The notes under the pieces are model-generated. The model was not told the DNA's origin. It did no database searches and saw nothing but the letters and a program-made list of their open reading frames with translations. Position numbers and translations under genes: made by a program. DNA of 64,000 nt from a virus (taxonomy: Duplodnaviria > Caudoviricetes), in the IMG/VR virus record IMGVR_UViG_3300025000_000057; one strand, 5' to 3'. Positions 3,969-30,156 of the stretch are shown in pieces. Each line of letters starts with the position of its first letter. Within the stretch, counting starts at the first letter, position 1.

Positions 3969-4730
3969 ATGGCAAAAGAAGTACAAAGAGACATATTCTT
4001 AGTAGAGAGGGGGATTACTGAAGAGAAATTGTGCGCTGTAGGTGCGGCACAATGCTATCGGCCAGATAATGCTAGGATAATCTATGAAAACATGGCTGAT
4101 GAAAGCATTGCTAGACAATTAACCAGCAGGCTAACAGAAGGTCATGTTAGCATACTGGCACATGGCGTAGCTACATTCTTCGTAGCAGGCTACACCCGTA
4201 GATTTCTGGCTCAGATTACTCGGAATACATTCCTTAAGCCGAGTGTACAGAGTCAACAGTTTATTCTTCATAAAGATTTCTCCTGGTCATCTACACCACT
4301 GATTGATATGGTACCGGTTGTTAAAGACTTTATTATAGCTCAGATGGAAGAAGATCAGAAGATATACAATCAGGTACACTCTCATCTGCAAAGGTTTCTT
4401 GATGATAATCCGGAGATTGCCAAACAGTTTAATAAAGATCAGGCTCAGGATGATGCCAGGTTAATGCTGAGAAACATTACAGAATCTAATATGATACTTA
4501 CCGGTACTATGTGGGCCTGGTATGAAGCCTTGCCTAAACGTATCTGCAGGCGCAACACTGAAGAGACTGTAGCTTTTTGCGTTAGCTGTTTGCGTCAATT
4601 AAGAGAGCAGCACCCAAGTATATTTAATTACTGTGGCGCACCCTGCCAAATGGGTGAGTGCCCGGAGAAACGTCCATGTAAGATCGGCCCGTATCCGGGT
4701 AATGTATGGGAAGGGACGGCTGTTATTTAA
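3969..4730 (+). CDS. thyX: ThyX-like flavin-dependent thymidylate synthase homologue with a divergent motif
   Basis: EGHVSILAH, AQITR..SVQSQQF, ARLMLRN.TE and CGAPCQMGECPE align with the ThyX layout; next to dCMP deaminase. Confidence 0.75.
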   Translation: MAKEVQRDIFLVERGITEEKLCAVGAAQCYRPDNARIIYENMADESIARQLTSRLTEGHVSILAHGVATFFVAGYTRRFLAQITRNTFLKPSVQSQQFILHKDFSWSSTPLIDMVPVVKDFIIAQMEEDQKIYNQVHSHLQRFLDDNPEIAKQFNKDQAQDDARLMLRNITESNMILTGTMWAWYEALPKRICRRNTEETVAFCVSCLRQLREQHPSIFNYCGAPCQMGECPEKRPCKIGPYPGNVWEGTAVI

Positions 4731-5443
4731 TGAGTGAAGAAACTGTAAAGTATTATTCAGAAACTCAGGAAGAGTTTGATAGACGAATGATGAAAGAGGC
4801 CGAGGCTATCTCTGTAAACTCGCCTTGTCTTAAGAAAAAGAATGGTGCTATTCTGGTATCAGCATCCGGGCCGATGACTACTGTAATGGAATGGAACGAT
4901 CTTAAGGATCGTTCATTATGCACTCCAGAGAAATGTCCCCGCATAGGTGCCGAGGCCGGCATTTGGAGCGAGGGTCAACCGGTTTGTGATGTTATTCATG
5001 CCGAAGTTAGGTTAATATGCGCGAGTGCTGAATGTGGAGTACCAATGCTAAATGGTACAGTATATTGTACTTATCAGCCGTGTGTTAACTGTGCAACTCT
5101 AGTATCTTTGACAGGAATTAAGCGGCTTGTTTACAGAGATACTTACGGTCAAGACAAAGCTAAGCCGGCTATGGATATCTTGAAAGATGCTGGTATTGAA
5201 GTAGAGCAATTGGATGCTCAATCCGCCGTAGACAAGGATATAGATGTTAAACTACTTCGTAGATTCGAATGCGGTATCGCATGTTTACAGCATGGTGAAT
5301 GTATAAAAACTGATTACGATTGTGAAGAAGATATGCCGGAAGGTACTTGCTGCGGACTTTGTGAAAAGTTTGATAATTGTGAGTATCCATGCCAAGATGT
5401 TGTTTTAAAGTTCGAAGAATGTACAGATCTTGGCAAGGATTAA
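4706..5443 (+). CDS. dCMP deaminase with a Cys-rich C-terminal extension (likely start 4730)
   Basis: SPC..KKNGA, HAE and PCVNC zinc motifs. Confidence 0.85.
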   Translation: MGRDGCYLMSEETVKYYSETQEEFDRRMMKEAEAISVNSPCLKKKNGAILVSASGPMTTVMEWNDLKDRSLCTPEKCPRIGAEAGIWSEGQPVCDVIHAEVRLICASAECGVPMLNGTVYCTYQPCVNCATLVSLTGIKRLVYRDTYGQDKAKPAMDILKDAGIEVEQLDAQSAVDKDIDVKLLRRFECGIACLQHGECIKTDYDCEEDMPEGTCCGLCEKFDNCEYPCQDVVLKFEECTDLGKD

Positions 5444-5447
5444 GGAT

Positions 5448-5525
5448 ATGATACCTGCCGACTTAGGTATTGTAACAGGTCTTATCCTTATAGGAGTTCT
5501 TATAGGATTAATGATTCCACGTTGA
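5448..5525 (+). CDS. 25-aa hydrophobic peptide
   Basis: AAGGA SD; MIPADLGIVTGLILIGVLIGLMIPR. Confidence 0.4.
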   Translation: MIPADLGIVTGLILIGVLIGLMIPR

Positions 5526-5540
5526 AAAGAGGGTGTAAGA

Positions 5541-5708
5541 TTGCTTAATATTATATGTAGTTGCGGACAATCGGTTCTGATAGATAAATCTATAGGTATG
5601 GAAGAACTTATGCATGTAGGCTTTGAGATCAGAACTACGGGTAATGACGATATCGAATTACGTTGTCGTTCCTGTGATGAAAAGATCACCTTTAAGGAAA
5701 GTGAGTAA
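5541..5708 (+). CDS. 55-aa putative zinc-ribbon protein
   Basis: GAGGG SD, TTG start; CSC...CRSC. Confidence 0.55.
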   Translation: MLNIICSCGQSVLIDKSIGMEELMHVGFEIRTTGNDDIELRCRSCDEKITFKESE

Positions 5709-5768
5709 GATAATCTGTCTGAAGTAGGTTCAAATCTTTATCGTTCGACTAAAGACTAATAAGATTAT

Positions 5769-6049
5769 TACAGAATAGCAATCGTGGTGGTGAACACGAG
5801 ACGCGAAAAGACAAGGTGAGCGTCGGTGAATAAGGAGATACGTGACGCTCCGAATATTTGCTGGCCTAATGGGTGCCCTGAAATAACAGGGCCGATGACA
5901 GCTCTACCTATCTGTGAATTGACACAGTGATACCGTCATATGGTGCCAGGTCTAACTGTATGATTTGTGTGTAACCAGGGAATTAAATCCAGGTAACTGT
6001 ATGTAGCCTAGCCCATGACCAAGTAAGTTCGAATCTTACCTATTCTGTA
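5769..6049 (+). ncRNA. unassigned structured RNA closed by a tRNA-like acceptor stem and T-arm
   Basis: TACAGAATAG (5769-78) pairs with CTATTCTGTA (6040-49); T-arm GTAAG-TTCGAAT-CTTAC abuts the 3' strand; GC-enriched interior with no ORF. Confidence 0.6.
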
Positions 6050-6077
6050 TTTAAACTAATAGATAGGAGTTGTTTTA

Positions 6078-6443
6078 ATGCCAGAAGATGCATCAGAAGA
6101 TAAATCCCTTATCAGTATGTCTGTAAGCGATTTTACCAAGAAGGTTACGCCCGTAAATGTTAAAGACGGTAACGAATTATTCCTCTTTAAGTGCGCTGGC
6201 TGCGGCGGTCTACATTTCCGTCATGCCGGGTATGTAGAGATGGTAATGCCCTATATGAGGGCGGATAAAACCAAGAATGTCTCAACCGACTCTTACAGTG
6301 TTAAAGTATGCGTAGCCTGCCGCAAGTGCTATATCTGGGTAAATGATCAGGTCTATGATATTACAGAACACATTGACTTGAAAGCTTGGGAGAAGCTTGA
6401 GAAAGAAGCTCATAAAGCCGTAGGCCCGGGTGGAAATTGCTAA
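6078..6443 (+). CDS. hypothetical zinc-finger protein
   Basis: AGGAG SD; CAGC...CVAC. Confidence 0.7.
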   Translation: MPEDASEDKSLISMSVSDFTKKVTPVNVKDGNELFLFKCAGCGGLHFRHAGYVEMVMPYMRADKTKNVSTDSYSVKVCVACRKCYIWVNDQVYDITEHIDLKAWEKLEKEAHKAVGPGGNC

Positions 6444-6471: not shown

Positions 6472-6554
6472 CAGGGGTTCTCCTAACGGTAAGGAAGTGT
6501 CGCGCCTAGGCTCCGACGACGCCATAGCGGGTTCAATTCCCGCACCCTTGACCA
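6472..6554 (+). tRNA. tRNA-like gene (83 nt) with a non-canonical anticodon arm, possibly Pro identity
   Basis: acceptor CAGGGGT/ACCCTTG, A73, encoded CCA; D-arm TCCT/AGGA with GG in the loop; T-arm GCGGG-TTCAATT-CCCGC. Confidence 0.7.
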
Positions 6555-6664: not shown

Positions 6665-6790
6665 TTCAGGGTAGTGGGGTTGTGCGATCATCCGGATCCC
6701 GCCCGGAACGGTAATATCGGCCATTTAAGCCCGAGGCGGTAAAGTTTAGATTAGTCAGTAGCCAGGTGAGGGAATCTGGCCTACCCTGAA
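6665..6790 (+). ncRNA. unassigned 126-nt structured RNA
   Basis: 10-bp terminal stem TTCAGGGTAG/CTACCCTGAA; GCCAG/CTGGC hairpin abutting the 3' strand; GC-rich island in AT-rich spacer. Confidence 0.55.
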
Positions 6791-7706
6791 TATTTATATA
6801 TCACATAAGAAAGGAGATGAAATAAGAGTGCATCTATTACACGATAGTACGGTTGTATGTTGCTTGCTAGATAAGGTATTCTGCGGAATGCTGGTATGCA
6901 TATATATAGACTTACCATACGCATACCTTTCTCTGGTTAAGCTACAACAGGGCGCCCCGCAACTATCACCGGAGATACACGGATTTCCAACCGGTTTTAC
7001 TTAAGGGTTTTGCTTAGTTCCCGAATATTTATATTTTAGCTCATTACCTGAGGGGTTGGGCCGGGCCGATATTGCTGTGACCGGCCCTCGGTTCATTTAT
7101 TGATTAATAAGAAAGGAGGTGAATACTAATTACTATATTAATAGCCTTTTGCCGGTTTTCTGGTTATGCGTGTAATTGTTATGTGTATGAAGGATCTTCT
7201 AAGCATATTGCTGTTTTAGGATATGGACATGCAATTGCTTTATCAGGGAATTCTCTTGCCTTAGAACGTGCTTTTATATTAGGACGTATAGGTAAGGATT
7301 TTACTGAAGCGTTTACAACTTATTGTGATGATTGGCGAGATGTAGTAAGTCGCGTAATGTATCCCATAAAGTTTATACTTAAATCATTGGCGCTTTTAAT
7401 ATCGCCAAATTGTTTATTGCCGGTGATTACCGGTACCATTTCGTTATTCCGGCGGCACTGTACTTTTGTTAGCGGTTACATCTAGCCCTTCGGGGCTAAT
7501 ACTTATCTACCTCCAATATTTATCTTACCAAAATTGCTTCTAACTGATTAAGAGAGGATGACGCCTAATGAAAGATGGTTTATACTCTAGAACCTTTGAT
7601 AAATAATATCTTGGCTGCCGGGCGCTGCCCGCGAAAGTTTCGATACGGGTAGCAGCATTTAATTTATATGATATAGTTTACTTCAGAAAGGAGGTGTTAT
7701 ATAAAA

Positions 7707-7880: not shown

Positions 7881-7976
7881 CGTCGCCCGGCCGGAGGGCT
7901 TATATCCGGTAACTAACGACCAATATTACGTATTTTCAACAAACACAGACCGGGTGTGCAGAACCCGGTCTTTTAT

Positions 7977-8558
7977 GGGCTCGACTGGTTTCGATGTGTT
8001 AGAGATGGTAAACTTGCCCGGACAGGTGGCGACTTACGCCAACAATATAAATGCCAAAACACCTTTACAAGCTGCTGCTTAGTCTTAGGACTGAATAGAT
8101 AAACAGCCTCAAAACATCGGAGCAAAACTCAGCTAACCGATTGAGAGTTTAAGAATTGAGTAATCCCCGGGAATGGGGTAGGAAATCTACATTCCTGTGG
8201 CTTCTGTGTAAGCCTACATCGGGCCGGGCCCGTGAATCGAAATGTGTAGAGCAAATCCTCGCAAATGTGAAGAGGTGGGAGGCGACAGTCCTGCGACTCG
8301 TAGAAGTCTAATGCTGCTAGTTCGGCATGAAGCGAAGAATGAAGGGGTATTACTGGTCATACTTGGAGCCGATAAGCTAGACCAGTTGGTGGAGGACCAT
8401 GTCCAGGATAGTTGGCAATTACTATCCACGGTGACCAACAGCCGGGGCGGTTCCGCCGTCCAGGAATGCGGCGAATGACTTACGTAATAAGTCTATTCCG
8501 GGTAGACGGTTAAGAGTAGCTAATACAGACGAGGGTTCGATTCCCTCCGAGTCCACCA
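7977..8558 (+). ncRNA. ssrA: tmRNA, unusually long (582 nt); tag (A)AKTPLQAAA
   Basis: acceptor GGGCTCG/CGAGTCC with G3-U wobble plus ACCA; T-arm GAGGG-TTCGATT-CCCTC; P2 TGTGTTAG/CTAATACA; tag codons 8053-8082 after ATAAAT. Confidence 0.92.
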
Positions 8559-26871: not shown

Positions 26872-28188
26872 ATGAGTAATCAAGGTTTAGCTATGCAAAA
26901 CCCAGGAGCGATTAATTTAAACCAATTAACACAACAACAGATCGAAGCTATGGCAATGGGAGCTGCTAATAAGTTAAACGTTATTAAGACAGAATTAAAC
27001 CAGGTTGTACTGGAGAGGGAGGCGGAAATCTCAAGCTTAATAAGAGCTCTTGCTGCAAGTGAACACGTACTATTTTTAGGGCCGCCTGGAGTTGCAAAAA
27101 CTATGTTGGCCAGGTATATGGTAAGCCATATCGTAGATGGCCGGTACTTCTACTGGTTAATGAACCGTACTACAGACCCAAGTGCTTTGCTTGGCCCTTA
27201 CAAGTTAAAAGAGATGGAGAAGGGTCGTTTCACAAGAAACTGGCAGGGAATGCTTCCAGACTGCCATATTGTAAACTTAGATGAGTTTTATAAAAGCAAT
27301 GAACCGGTTGTTAACATTCTACTGACCATCTTAAATGAAAGGTTATTCCACGATGATGGTCAAGCTATTCCGGTAGTATTGCGTACCTTGGTAGCCTGCT
27401 CAAATGAGGGGCCAGAGGATGATATTCTAAAACCGTTACATGACAGACTCCTATTCCGACACATTGTACAGCCGATTAAAGATCCTTCAAACCGTATCAA
27501 AATGATGAAATTAGATGTTGCTAGACGGTCTGTTGGAGGTCAGTATATTCCAAGAACTGTAATCAGCATTCCGGAATTAGATGCTCTTAGCATCGTAATT
27601 AACAGGTGGGTAAAGATACCTGATAGCGTATATGCTGCTCTTAATAAACTAGATATGGCGCTTATAAAGAAAGGTATCGAGATTACAGACCGTAGAAAGA
27701 CCGCCAGAATGAAAGTACTTCAGGCGGAAGCCGTACTAAATGGTCGCATGATTGTATCTACAAATGACCTTACAGCTCTTACACATATATTCTGGGAGCG
27801 CGAAGAGGACATTAAAGAGGTCGATACCGAAATATCAAAACTGGTTAATCCGTACGAGCAAAAGTTCAAGGAACTAATGACAAGAGCTACGGAAATCCAT
27901 AAGGTTACTATGGGTATTGATACATTTGCTGAAAGGGCTAAAGCCGCTATTGAAGCAAAGAGTGTTCTTGATAAGATTCTTGAGAAAATGAGTGGAATGA
28001 CAGATTCCATGAGGAAAGAAGGTCACGATACTGATAAGATACAAAAAGGTATTGTGGAGGTTGAATCGTTCCGTAGTCAAGTCATGCAAGATTGTCTAGG
28101 CGTTAATAAAGCAACTAATAATGCTCAGGTAATAGATCAACCCGATTTGTTTGGGACTAATGGTAGCGACGCATCATTACCCTTCTAG
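26872..28188 (+). CDS. MoxR/RavA-type AAA+ ATPase
   Basis: Walker A GPPGVAKT, Walker B NLDEFYK, sensor SNE, DRLL arginine finger. Confidence 0.9.
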   Translation: MSNQGLAMQNPGAINLNQLTQQQIEAMAMGAANKLNVIKTELNQVVLEREAEISSLIRALAASEHVLFLGPPGVAKTMLARYMVSHIVDGRYFYWLMNRTTDPSALLGPYKLKEMEKGRFTRNWQGMLPDCHIVNLDEFYKSNEPVVNILLTILNERLFHDDGQAIPVVLRTLVACSNEGPEDDILKPLHDRLLFRHIVQPIKDPSNRIKMMKLDVARRSVGGQYIPRTVISIPELDALSIVINRWVKIPDSVYAALNKLDMALIKKGIEITDRRKTARMKVLQAEAVLNGRMIVSTNDLTALTHIFWEREEDIKEVDTEISKLVNPYEQKFKELMTRATEIHKVTMGIDTFAERAKAAIEAKSVLDKILEKMSGMTDSMRKEGHDTDKIQKGIVEVESFRSQVMQDCLGVNKATNNAQVIDQPDLFGTNGSDASLPF

Positions 28189-28203
28189 AAGGAGGCGAAT
28201 GGA

Positions 28204-30156
28204 TTGAAAAACCCGTTTGAAGATTTTATAGATCCTTTTAACAATGATAATAACGAGGCTGAGAAATCGGGCTATATTGACCCGTTTTCTCAGCCACAAA
28301 AGCCGCATCAAATTGATCCTTTCAGTATTAATAATACACTGAAACCTAGTGATAATCCATTTGATTACTGGGTTCCTGATAAGCTAAATACTCCAGAAGA
28401 ACCAAGGGATATGTCACCGGAAGAGGCAGCGTTTCTGGCCGAGCAGGATATACTTCGGGAAGAGATTAGTAAACGTGATTTAAATGATAAGAAAAATGTA
28501 GCCGGTATCTTTGACCTGCCTGAGTTAACAACGGGGAGTAATATCAAGAAAAGTCGGCAAGCATTAAGACAAACAATATACGATGGCGATATCTTTACAG
28601 ATATAGTACAAGATTCGCCCGTTATGGAAGAGACACTCAACGAGGCTAGGAAGTTGTTAAGAACTCTGCCAGCGCTTGCTCAAGATCAATTCTTAGCATT
28701 GTTTAAAATGGAACCGGAAATGGTTACTATTGACCATATGATAAAAGAGTACGAAGTAAATTGGCATTTATTAAAAGGTACTATGAGCTGTCAGGAGTAT
28801 ATTAATTTAGTACCGAGTTGTACACTTGATATATTTTGCAGTGCCATTGGTTCTGAGGTACTCTTGCGGCGTATAGTCGACTTATTGAAAGAAAAGATCG
28901 AAGAGCACCGGAAGGCTAAGGAAGAGGCCGATAAAAACGGCATGCCAGATCCGAATGCTCAAAACCCTGGTCAGGTTAATATGGACGAATGGGTTAAAAC
29001 TATAAACGATATGATCGATAACTCTCAGAATTTAAATAAGGTCAATAATAGTATTAGCCAAATTGATGAAATGATAAAGAAAGCTGACGCTGCTAAACAA
29101 AAGGGGCTAGAATTAACAAAGGACGGTCTTCTAATGGATCAGCAATTAGCATTAAAACTTGCAGATCAACTTAGTAAGATTGTTAACGATAATATGAAAA
29201 CCCATGTCCCGGAAATCGAGACTATCATAAAAACAGCCTTGACTGATACCGAACCAGAAGTCGGTGCCGTTCGAGATGCTGTTAATATGTGGGGATGGGC
29301 TGAGAATGATGGTAATGTACGTATTACAATGGAGAATAAACGTCGAGCTCTAGAACGTTTACGTACCAGCGATAAAATGAAGCGATTGGCCGAGTTAATA
29401 GGACATTTCCGGAAAATCGCTCAGGCTGAGAAGAAACGTAAAAGCCCAGACGGTCAGGTGAATATTAAAACAGTTACCCAGGGTGGTAATATTCTAGAGG
29501 CTCTTCCGTCAGAACTCGGCCTCTTAATGCATCCTACTGCAAGAGCGGATGTACTGCGTAGAATGAATGAGAATCGTCTACTGGTCTATAAGAAAGAAAG
29601 TACCGGTTTTGTAGGCAGAGGGCCTATGGTGGTTTGTGGTGATACTTCTGGCTCTATGAGTGGTCAAAAGGAAGAATGGAGTAAAGCCTTAGCTCTTGCT
29701 TTAATCGAAATTGCACAACAGCAAAAGCGTGATTTCTATTGTATTCACTTTTCAACTAATATAGTGGGCGAATGGGAAGTTCAAAAAGGATTGTTTGATC
29801 CTAATGTTGTTATCGATATCGCTGAGAAATTCAGTGGCGGTGGTACTAACTTTGAACGACCCTTAATGAAAGCTATGGATGTTATCAAGAAGAATAAGTA
29901 TAAGAAAGCTGATATACTATTCATTACAGATGGAGATTGTGCCGTATCAGGTAAGTTTATCAGCGATTTTAAAGCCCTTAAGACTGAGAAAGACTTTATG
30001 GTACGTACCGTCTTGATCAATACTGGTAGTGGCGGTACTAGCAGATCCACCGTAGCACAATTCTCTGATAGCGTAACCGCAATAAGTAATTTAGCAGATT
30101 TAAATGGTGGTGATGATAGTGTTGCCAGAGCGATCCTTGGAGGTATCCAAGATTAG
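28204..30156 (+). CDS. VWA-domain (ViaA-like) partner protein
   Basis: MIDAS DTSGSM, GGGTNF, FITDG; follows the AAA gene. Confidence 0.9.
   Translation: MKNPFEDFIDPFNNDNNEAEKSGYIDPFSQPQKPHQIDPFSINNTLKPSDNPFDYWVPDKLNTPEEPRDMSPEEAAFLAEQDILREEISKRDLNDKKNVAGIFDLPELTTGSNIKKSRQALRQTIYDGDIFTDIVQDSPVMEETLNEARKLLRTLPALAQDQFLALFKMEPEMVTIDHMIKEYEVNWHLLKGTMSCQEYINLVPSCTLDIFCSAIGSEVLLRRIVDLLKEKIEEHRKAKEEADKNGMPDPNAQNPGQVNMDEWVKTINDMIDNSQNLNKVNNSISQIDEMIKKADAAKQKGLELTKDGLLMDQQLALKLADQLSKIVNDNMKTHVPEIETIIKTALTDTEPEVGAVRDAVNMWGWAENDGNVRITMENKRRALERLRTSDKMKRLAELIGHFRKIAQAEKKRKSPDGQVNIKTVTQGGNILEALPSELGLLMHPTARADVLRRMNENRLLVYKKESTGFVGRGPMVVCGDTSGSMSGQKEEWSKALALALIEIAQQQKRDFYCIHFSTNIVGEWEVQKGLFDPNVVIDIAEKFSGGGTNFERPLMKAMDVIKKNKYKKADILFITDGDCAVSGKFISDFKALKTEKDFMVRTVLINTGSGGTSRSTVAQFSDSVTAISNLADLNGGDDSVARAILGGIQD

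Follow-up and report, generated by a model that had tools for sequence, protein, structure and literature searches.

A 281-nt non-coding RNA with a tRNA-type acceptor/T-arm frame and a multi-hairpin interior encoded by an uncultured huge groundwater phage

The 64,000-nt stretch of DNA that was analyzed (the window) proved identical to contig CACUYJ010000001.1 of the NCBI assembly GCA_902725955.1 (a 219,483-bp record), and the same DNA was present in groundwater and sediment metagenomes, with no RNA data set listed among the public runs containing it; its source is an uncultured huge phage of 219 kb from groundwater. All long ORFs in the window are located on the plus strand and encode phage replication and nucleotide-metabolism proteins. 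A 370-nt gap without genes, flanked by small zinc-ribbon genes, is mostly filled by a 281-nt RNA (5769–6049, plus strand), whose GC content is 0.46 compared to approximately 0.39 in the window. The RNA belongs to a 2.8-kb RNA island, together with a tRNA-like gene and a tmRNA, and is separated from the canonical tRNA array of the phage by about 70 kb. Identical copies were found in five other assemblies (complete in four of them and represented by the first 170 nt in JGI contig L024), and no further copies were detected in the window, in the adjoining 20 kb or in the examined relatives.

The tRNA-like gene of the island (6472–6551, plus strand, 80 nt) scored 32.6 bits with the Rfam tRNA model and was not called by ARAGORN. 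It combines the C1-G72, A2-U71 and G3:U70 pairs with A73 and an encoded CCA, while its "anticodon loop" of 14–16 nt includes the palindrome GCCUAGGC. The gene is apparently an alanine-type acceptor unable to decode. The tmRNA (7977–8558, plus strand, 582 nt, tag AKTPLQAAA*) is a true one, reaching 59.2 bits with RF00023, for which the gathering score is 47 bits. It contains approximately 250 extra nt after the tag, in the PK2 region, and is directly preceded by a terminator-like hairpin (7947–7971). Two more unclassified structured RNAs were noticed, one in the island at 6666–6789 (plus strand, 124–126 nt) and another beyond the window in the same phage (L023 15202–15361, plus strand, 160–166 nt). 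In both, the terminal helix measures about 10 bp and has ...UAG/CUA... at its end, and its 3' strand is directly abutted by a 7–8-bp hairpin without a T-loop. The helix strands CAGNNTAG/CTANNCTG are common to the RNA at 6666–6789 and the 281-nt RNA, with two such pairs in the window against a mean of 0.27 in shuffled sequences, which is suggestive of a possible kinship; a family is not claimed, because the coincidence was recognized post hoc and the generic frame is as common in shuffled sequences.

Table 1. Structural features of the 281-nt RNA (positions in the window).
Feature	Position	Strand	Remarks
Terminal helix, 5' strand	5769–5778	+	5772–5778 (AGAATAG) is the acceptor-stem equivalent, positions 1–7
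D-arm-like hairpin UCGUG-GUGGUGAA-CACGA	5782–5799	+	UGGU core in the loop; alternative to P2
8-bp hairpin GAGCGUCG/UGACGCUC	5818–5825/5843–5850	+	17-nt loop; compensatory C5824U and G5844A
Hairpin GCCCUG-AAAUAA-CAGGGC	5875–5892	+	Pair probability at least 0.88 in both strains
Hypervariable linker or loop	5898–5911	+	6 of the 30 variant differences: 5900, 5902del, 5903, 5905, 5906, 5909
Hairpin CUGUG-AAUUGA-CACAG	5912–5927	+	Two-strain consensus fold; variant changes 5917 and 5919 in the loop
10-bp hairpin GUCAUAUGGU/ACUGUAUGAU	5935–5944/5955–5964	+	Three G-U pairs; compensatory A5940G and U5959C
Small hairpin GGA-AUUAAA-UCC	5978–5990	+	Variant form GAGG-AAUUGAA-CCUC
CCAUGA, candidate 3' strand of a P2/anticodon-stem-like helix	6013–6018	+	Partner UCGUGG 5782–5787
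T-arm GTAAG-TTCGAAT-CTTAC	6023–6039	+	Directly before the 3' acceptor strand
Terminal helix, 3' strand	6040–6049	+	CTATTCT is positions 66–72

The two ends of the RNA, TACAGAATAG and CTATTCTGTA, form a perfect terminal helix with pair probabilities of 0.67–1.0 in both strains (the phage itself and the variant described below). The initial annotation had recognized here a seven-pair acceptor stem followed by G73 and abutting a perfect T-arm. Both elements are indeed present, the acceptor equivalent being the inner 7 bp of a helix that in fact extends over 10 bp; G6047 stands at the discriminator place, yet is paired with C5771. The T-arm (pair probability 0.86–0.88) carries all of the conserved nucleotides, i.e., G53, U54, U55, C56, R57, A58 and C61. 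Thus, the 7-bp acceptor and the directly adjoining T-arm, with its 5-bp stem, UUCRANN loop and G53-C61 pair, correspond to a tRNA, while the other tRNA hallmarks, an anticodon arm with a 7-nt loop and an overall length of about 70–95 nt, are not those of this 281-nt molecule. Three nucleotides separate the acceptor from the next helix, unlike the tRNA pattern. The reported lack of a G3-U pair and of an encoded CCA was also correct: the third acceptor pair is A3-U70 rather than G3:U70, and the stem is followed by G-TAT. The ten canonical tRNA genes of the phage form an array beyond the window (L023 15458–18255); nine of them, all but tRNA-Ser(GCU), encode CCA, and so do the tRNA-like gene and the tmRNA. 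The T-arm of the phage tRNA-Gln (GTAGG/TTCGAAT/CCTAC) differs from that of the 281-nt RNA by one compensated base pair, and an origin of the frame from a phage tRNA gene would be compatible with this similarity.

Between the acceptor and the T-arm there are approximately 240 nt of hairpins replacing the D and anticodon arms (Table 1). The fold had a z-score of -2.46, with 2 of the 200 shuffled sequences being as stable. According to the pair probabilities, the terminal helix, the T-arm and the hairpin 5875–5892 are robust in both strains, while the helices 5818–5850, 5935–5964 and 5978–5990 are supported by changes in the variant. The interior hairpins named in the initial annotation all exist in the sequence. 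The proposed GCCCTG/CAGGGC stem is the robust hairpin just mentioned, and GTCATA/TATGAT turned out to be a part of the 10-bp helix with a compensatory change. The two remaining stems, GACGC/GCGTC and ACACAG/TTGTGT, can be formed, but they compete with other pairings: the former with the better supported 5818–5825/5843–5850, and the latter with CTGTG/CACAG (5912–5916/5923–5927).

The UCGUG(G) sequence at 5782–5787 has two mutually exclusive partners, CACGA (5795–5799) and CCAUGA (6013–6018), so that the TCGTGG/CCATGA pairing suggested previously as a mimic of the tmRNA P2 does exist, but only at the expense of the TCGTG/CACGA hairpin that had been listed along with it. In the first case, a 5-bp hairpin starts 3 nt after the acceptor, compared to 2 nt for a tRNA D-arm with G18 G19 in the loop, and its loop GUGGUGAA contains the same UGGU core as the D-loops of the phage's own tRNAs. 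The sole change in this hairpin in the variant is U5791C, located in the loop just after GG. In the second case, the pairing with CCAUGA, which sits 4 nt (CCAA) before the T-arm, creates a helix resembling an anticodon stem or the tmRNA P2, and the junction is then a simple three-way one. The P2-like pairing was favored in the single-sequence fold, while the two-strain consensus fold favored the D-like hairpin by about 4 kcal/mol; both UCGUGG and CCAUGA are invariant in the strain variant. Another element of the interior is the 17-nt loop GUGAAUAAGGAGAUACG of the 8-bp hairpin (5826–5842), which displays a Shine-Dalgarno-like AAGGAG and is unchanged in the variant.

The sole source of variation was one low-depth (3.6x) contig from run X3 of the same study, which could be aligned over positions 5761–6054 and is approximately 12% diverged, with 27 substitutions and 7 indel letters over this range. 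Of these, 24 substitutions and all of the indels are located in 5791–5995 (205 nt), and there are none in 5996–6024. No differences occur in 5761–5790 either, a 30-mer including the 5' strand of the terminal helix, which is shared because both contigs start there. The three other substitutions fall somewhere within 6025–6054, so that conservation is not claimed for the 3' half of the T-arm, the 3' strand of the acceptor or the trailer. Beyond position ~6054 the variant contig carries different DNA.

Within the variable region, helices are preserved by paired changes. In the 8-bp helix, C5824U and G5844A replace a C-G pair by U-A. In the 10-bp helix, A5940G and U5959C replace A-U by G-C, the changes at 5942 and 5963 are one-sided and compatible with pairing, and the change at 5954 is in the loop. 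In the small hairpin, a paired insertion (A behind 5978 and U behind 5989), together with U5988C, re-registers the stem into a longer one, from GGA/UCC to GAGG/CCUC. The remaining changes are mostly located in hairpin loops (5883 and 5885, both in the loop of the hairpin 5875–5892; 5917 and 5919; 5954) or belong to the cluster at 5900–5909. In a simulation of 3,000 trials with the same number and kind of substitutions placed randomly, at least two helices of at least 8 bp with a double-sided pair-preserving change were obtained in 0.6% of the trials (p ~0.006) and three in none, while three such helices, two of them overlapping, were observed in the variant. The strand can be assigned as plus, because the G-U pairs would become C-A mismatches on the opposite strand, and the G-U-compatible changes of the variant likewise make sense only for a plus-strand RNA. 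These results show that the 281-nt element is a real non-coding plus-strand RNA gene with helices under selection and with a tRNA-type frame. Compensatory changes of the kind sought by the covariation check of the initial annotation were seen in one strain variant, and its view of the locus as a genuine structured RNA with a tRNA-type acceptor/T-arm frame was supported.

Two coding candidates were rejected in the course of the same comparison. The only ORF in the region, 5826–5930 (34 aa), is interrupted in the variant by frameshifting indels (+1 at 5853 and -1 at 5902) and is therefore not coding. In the case of a mini-ORF with a Shine-Dalgarno sequence and a GUG start at 5842, GUG is replaced by GUA in the variant as a part of a compensated pair.

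A loose descriptor of an acceptor plus T-arm matched five places in the window, three of them in the RNA island and two by chance in coding DNA, with the latter corresponding to a rate of 2 matches per 128 kb; because such chance matches occur in coding DNA, the bare descriptor is insufficient as evidence. A generic descriptor, "closing helix plus abutting hairpin", was as common as in shuffled sequences. The significance of the 281-nt RNA, consequently, derives from several features taken together: the helix of 10 perfect pairs, the T-arm with all of its canonical nucleotides, the position outside coding sequence, the z-score of -2.46 and the compensatory changes.

The RNA did not fall into any of the curated families. 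The Rfam scan of positions 5600–6200 gave no match to any family at E <= 10, with tRNA, tmRNA, the introns of groups I and II, YrlA, RNase P, GOLLD and ROOL among those covered, and nothing relevant to the RNA was obtained at the gathering score. ARAGORN, used in the tRNA and tmRNA modes with or without introns of 0–300 nt, called nothing, while the control tRNA-Gln was detected. Furthermore, none of the 3,906 products of a deletion scan, in which each 5' end point from 18 to 79 was joined to each 3' start point from 195 to 257, was recognized by ARAGORN as a tRNA. Hence, two outcomes named in advance as fatal for the initial interpretation, a match to a known family in a covariance-model scan and splicing to an ordinary tRNA, were not encountered in the Rfam search at E <= 10, in the single deletions or in the ARAGORN intron mode, and the reported absence of a group I P7 or group II domain V agreed with the lack of Intron_gpI and group II matches at E <= 10. 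Comparison with the rest of the window, the tmRNA included, revealed no similarity to the RNA. Altogether, the data support the conclusion that the RNA is neither an ordinary or intron-bearing tRNA nor a tmRNA, and that it cannot read codons.

Searches for homologues outside this phage lineage gave none, and by sequence the RNA is an orphan. It had no homologue among 50,697 phage records in blastn or among viral contigs using exact and gapped patterns. The exact patterns also gave no matches in metagenome contigs, although this negative result is weak because the collection failed to return JGI contig L024, which holds the sequence. The only match in genome contigs was a chance 20-mer within a hydrolase gene of Chloroflexia and was discarded. 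A covariance model (R1) applied to the compared loci, to 20 kb beyond the window and to two IMG/VR records detected no homologue; its only matches were weak ones, across the whole frame, to tRNA-Tyr (12.8 bits) and tRNA-Gln (9.4 bits) of the same phage. Synteny was followed through 28 proteins related to the product of the downstream 121-aa gene, and the RNA was absent beside these relatives in every contig examined (L001, L003–L007, L010–L012). The deaminase, the 55-aa protein and the DNA polymerase had no non-identical relatives within reach to serve as synteny anchors.

One of the contigs related through the 121-aa gene, L005 from a 220-kb groundwater phage, contains a 2-kb stretch without genes (4180–6259). 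Approximately 580 nt of it consist of degenerate GGTAAAGTA-like repeats. The stretch also carries two unusual tRNA-like genes, one of which has G-U as its third pair and an anticodon arm seemingly ending in a GUAA tetraloop, and, at ~5830–6100, four hairpins whose loops are of the GUUGAAA type.

The closest known counterpart of the 281-nt RNA is RNAC of phage T4 (species 1 RNA, gene rnaC). Together with RNAD, it originates from the T4 tRNA region and is expressed late, and neither has a known role; RNAC has been known as a stable RNA since the 1970s and is still without a function (PMC3014915, PMC9697503). Inspection of its sequence (NC_000866 70908–71046, 139 nt) demonstrated that the ends form an irregular 7-bp stem (C2-G137, G3-C136, A4-U135, two U-U, C7-G132 and G8-C131), directly abutted by CCGGG-UUCGAAU-CCCGG, and that the interior is not a normal cloverleaf. 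Thus, both RNAs are phage-encoded among tRNA-type genes and non-decoding, both have a terminal stem of about 7 bp with its 3' strand abutted by a 5-bp T-stem with the UUCGAAU loop, and in both the interior is other than a D/anticodon cloverleaf. In contrast to the 281-nt RNA, RNAC is 139 nt long, has U-U mismatches in its stem instead of 10 perfect pairs and lies directly in the tRNA array and not in a separate tmRNA-bearing island; the two share no sequence, and the R1 model found nothing in the T4 locus. The 281-nt RNA, therefore, shares with RNAC a design that is a class rather than a curated family. The claim of novelty made initially holds for the sequence, which belongs to no curated family, but not for the design, already known from RNAC. 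The phage RNA represents a clean, well-supported example of this old unsolved RNAC-type class, new in sequence and known in design.

With a probability of about one half, the locus is best interpreted as encoding a tRNA-framed, non-decoding stable phage RNA of ~276–281 nt on the plus strand with the T4 RNAC-type design. In such an RNA, the terminal helix would stack on the T-arm into the acceptor/T-arm "minihelix" of tRNA, and a multi-hairpin domain of ~225–240 nt would fold independently at the place of the D and anticodon arms. The frame would make the molecule a substrate for the host tRNA maturation machinery, with a putative RNase P cut on the 5' side at C5771/A5772, 3' trimming near G6047 and, possibly, addition of CCA. 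This processing would free the RNA from a longer transcript, and the frame would lend it a tRNA-like stability, while the interior may serve as the functional payload. Maturation through the tRNA pathway is probable, although several features speak against a simple tRNA-like course. The terminal helix is 3 bp longer than an acceptor and its leader is paired with the discriminator and the trailer; these extra pairs sequester the discriminator, which is unfavorable for RNase P and RNase Z, the enzymes put forward in the initial annotation. The missing CCA and the 3-nt linker point in the same direction. As a leading guess, the payload might act during infection as a tRNA-shaped mimic or sponge for a tRNA- or ribosome-binding factor, a proposal prompted only by the neighborhood (the tmRNA and the tRNA-like gene with G3:U70, CCA and a closed anticodon loop of 14–16 nt) and by the conserved AAGGAG loop.

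Alternatively, the sequence might not act as a free RNA at all but as a cis-acting leader or 3' UTR of the flanking zinc-ribbon genes, or as an element at the DNA level, either mobile or a protein-binding site. The 10-bp ends form a perfect inverted repeat, frames of the generic type (a terminal helix plus hairpin) are no rarer than expected by chance, neither a convincing sigma-70 promoter nor a terminator was detected on inspection of the surroundings of the RNA, and the variant contig has different DNA downstream of ~6054, all of which would suit such an element. It is, nevertheless, unlikely, since the compensatory and G-U-compatible changes indicate that the fold of a plus-strand RNA is under selection, a canonical T-loop has no rationale at the DNA level, and there were neither target-site duplications in the flanks of the RNA nor other copies in the sequences searched. 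A different possibility concerns a tRNA gene with a large self- or protein-spliced intron, the removal of which would produce a working tRNA, possibly without a D-arm. The length equals that of a tRNA plus a small group I intron, the acceptor and T-arm are canonical, and a 6-bp helix lies 4 nt before the T-arm at the place of the anticodon stem, so that the group I-intron tRNA genes (such as tRNA-Leu(UAA) and tRNA-Ile) and canonical tRNA (RF00005) resemble the 281-nt RNA in these respects. The latter, however, has no intron core or anticodon arm, and its exons make no tRNA, as evident from the negative Rfam, ARAGORN and deletion results given above. In addition, formation of the D-like hairpin leaves no segment ahead of the variable loop that is complementary to the nucleotides following this hairpin, and the selected interior helices include no recognizable P7 or G-binding core, which leaves an intron-bearing tRNA as the most improbable of the readings.

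The remaining alternatives are related to ribosome rescue. The RNA might be a tmRNA-like molecule of non-alanine identity functioning in trans-translation, with UCGUGG/CCAUGA as P2, resumption at GCU 5860 and the tag AGLMGALK. As in the tmRNA family (RF00023, including the phage's own representative), an acceptor and T-arm domain closes a large structured interior, and the topology fits with the candidate P2 located 4 nt before the T-arm. The frame GCU GGC CUA AUG GGU GCC CUG AAA UAA (5860–5886), consisting of 9 codons (8 sense and a stop), ends in the loop of the GCCCUG/CAGGGC hairpin, similar to the stop codon in the loop of the tmRNA helix 5; GCU is preceded by an A/U-rich run, comparable to AAUAUAAAU ahead of GCC in the true tmRNA of the phage, and the variant frame (...AUA...AAG UGA) has a Leu to Ile replacement, a synonymous Lys codon and a retained stop. 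The initial statement that there is no tag ORF was, therefore, nearly accurate: this 9-codon frame exists, but has no other support. On the opposite side, no match to RF00023 was present in 5600–6200 at E <= 10 and ARAGORN found no tmRNA; A3-U70 stands in place of G3:U70, CCA and a D-loop analogue are absent, and the linker is 3 nt long; there is no clear PK1, nor a convincing tag, the end of which is not a protease-type motif; the three ORF-compatible changes are not significant (p ~0.2 in our rough estimate); and a canonical tmRNA of the phage is already available 2 kb away. This makes a trans-translating function very unlikely. It is also quite unlikely that the RNA is a tRNA/mRNA-like hybrid distinct from tmRNA, whose non-alanine domain would dock to the ribosome while the Shine-Dalgarno loop and the short frame engage the 30S subunit. 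Just as doubtful is the extension of this hybrid model in which the RNA, the alanine-type tRNA-like gene and the oversized tmRNA would constitute a module reprogramming ribosome rescue or blocking a tRNA-directed host defense.

Compared to T4 RNAC, the RNAC-type molecule preferred here is twice as long and has a textbook T-arm and demonstrably selected interior helices, and it comes from a huge phage, where it is placed beside a tmRNA and an anticodon-less alanine-type tRNA-like gene. If such RNAs were matured by the tRNA machinery and acted as mimics or scaffolds, they would represent a natural counterpart of the engineered "tRNA scaffold" and could add a new level to the control that phages exert on translation or on tRNA-directed host defense. 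Both comparative analysis and experiments are limited, because the RNA is so far private to one uncultured phage lineage.

The sequence AATATTTA was found 5 times in the 64 kb, four of them on the plus strand inside a 1.8-kb section of the RNA island (6789, 7024, 7515 and 8558). Each of these island copies follows a C-rich run and is located either at an RNA end or upstream of a small gene that has a Shine-Dalgarno sequence; the motif may be a promoter or a processing signal. CCGAATATTT is also present within the 281-nt RNA (5850–5859) and at 7021–7030. Beyond the window, just before the 160-nt RNA of the same phage, there is a match to the Acb2/Tad1-hairpin Pfam family (L023 14930–15184), which is a family of anti-CBASS/Thoeris sponges.

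The YrlA-type Y RNAs (RF02553) are another group of non-coding RNAs with a tRNA-like module that includes a T-arm, and some of them occur in phages (PMC4201824). Their ends, however, are in a Ro60-binding stem opposite to the tRNA-like module, while the ends of the 281-nt RNA form the acceptor-like stem itself; the latter had no match to RF02553, and Ro60 was not detected, with the 650-aa VWA protein encoded at 28204–30156 showing similarity to the VWA domain only and none to Ro60/TROVE. This protein, with the VWA domain at its C-terminus and a weak match to a PHROG "RNA-binding protein", is encoded after a MoxR-like ATPase (26872–30156 for both, plus strand). A sub-threshold YrlA match (34.9 bits, E = 3e-4) was observed beside a VWA-domain gene at positions 290–394 of L006, a 129-kb phage contig that also contains a homologue of the 121-aa gene.
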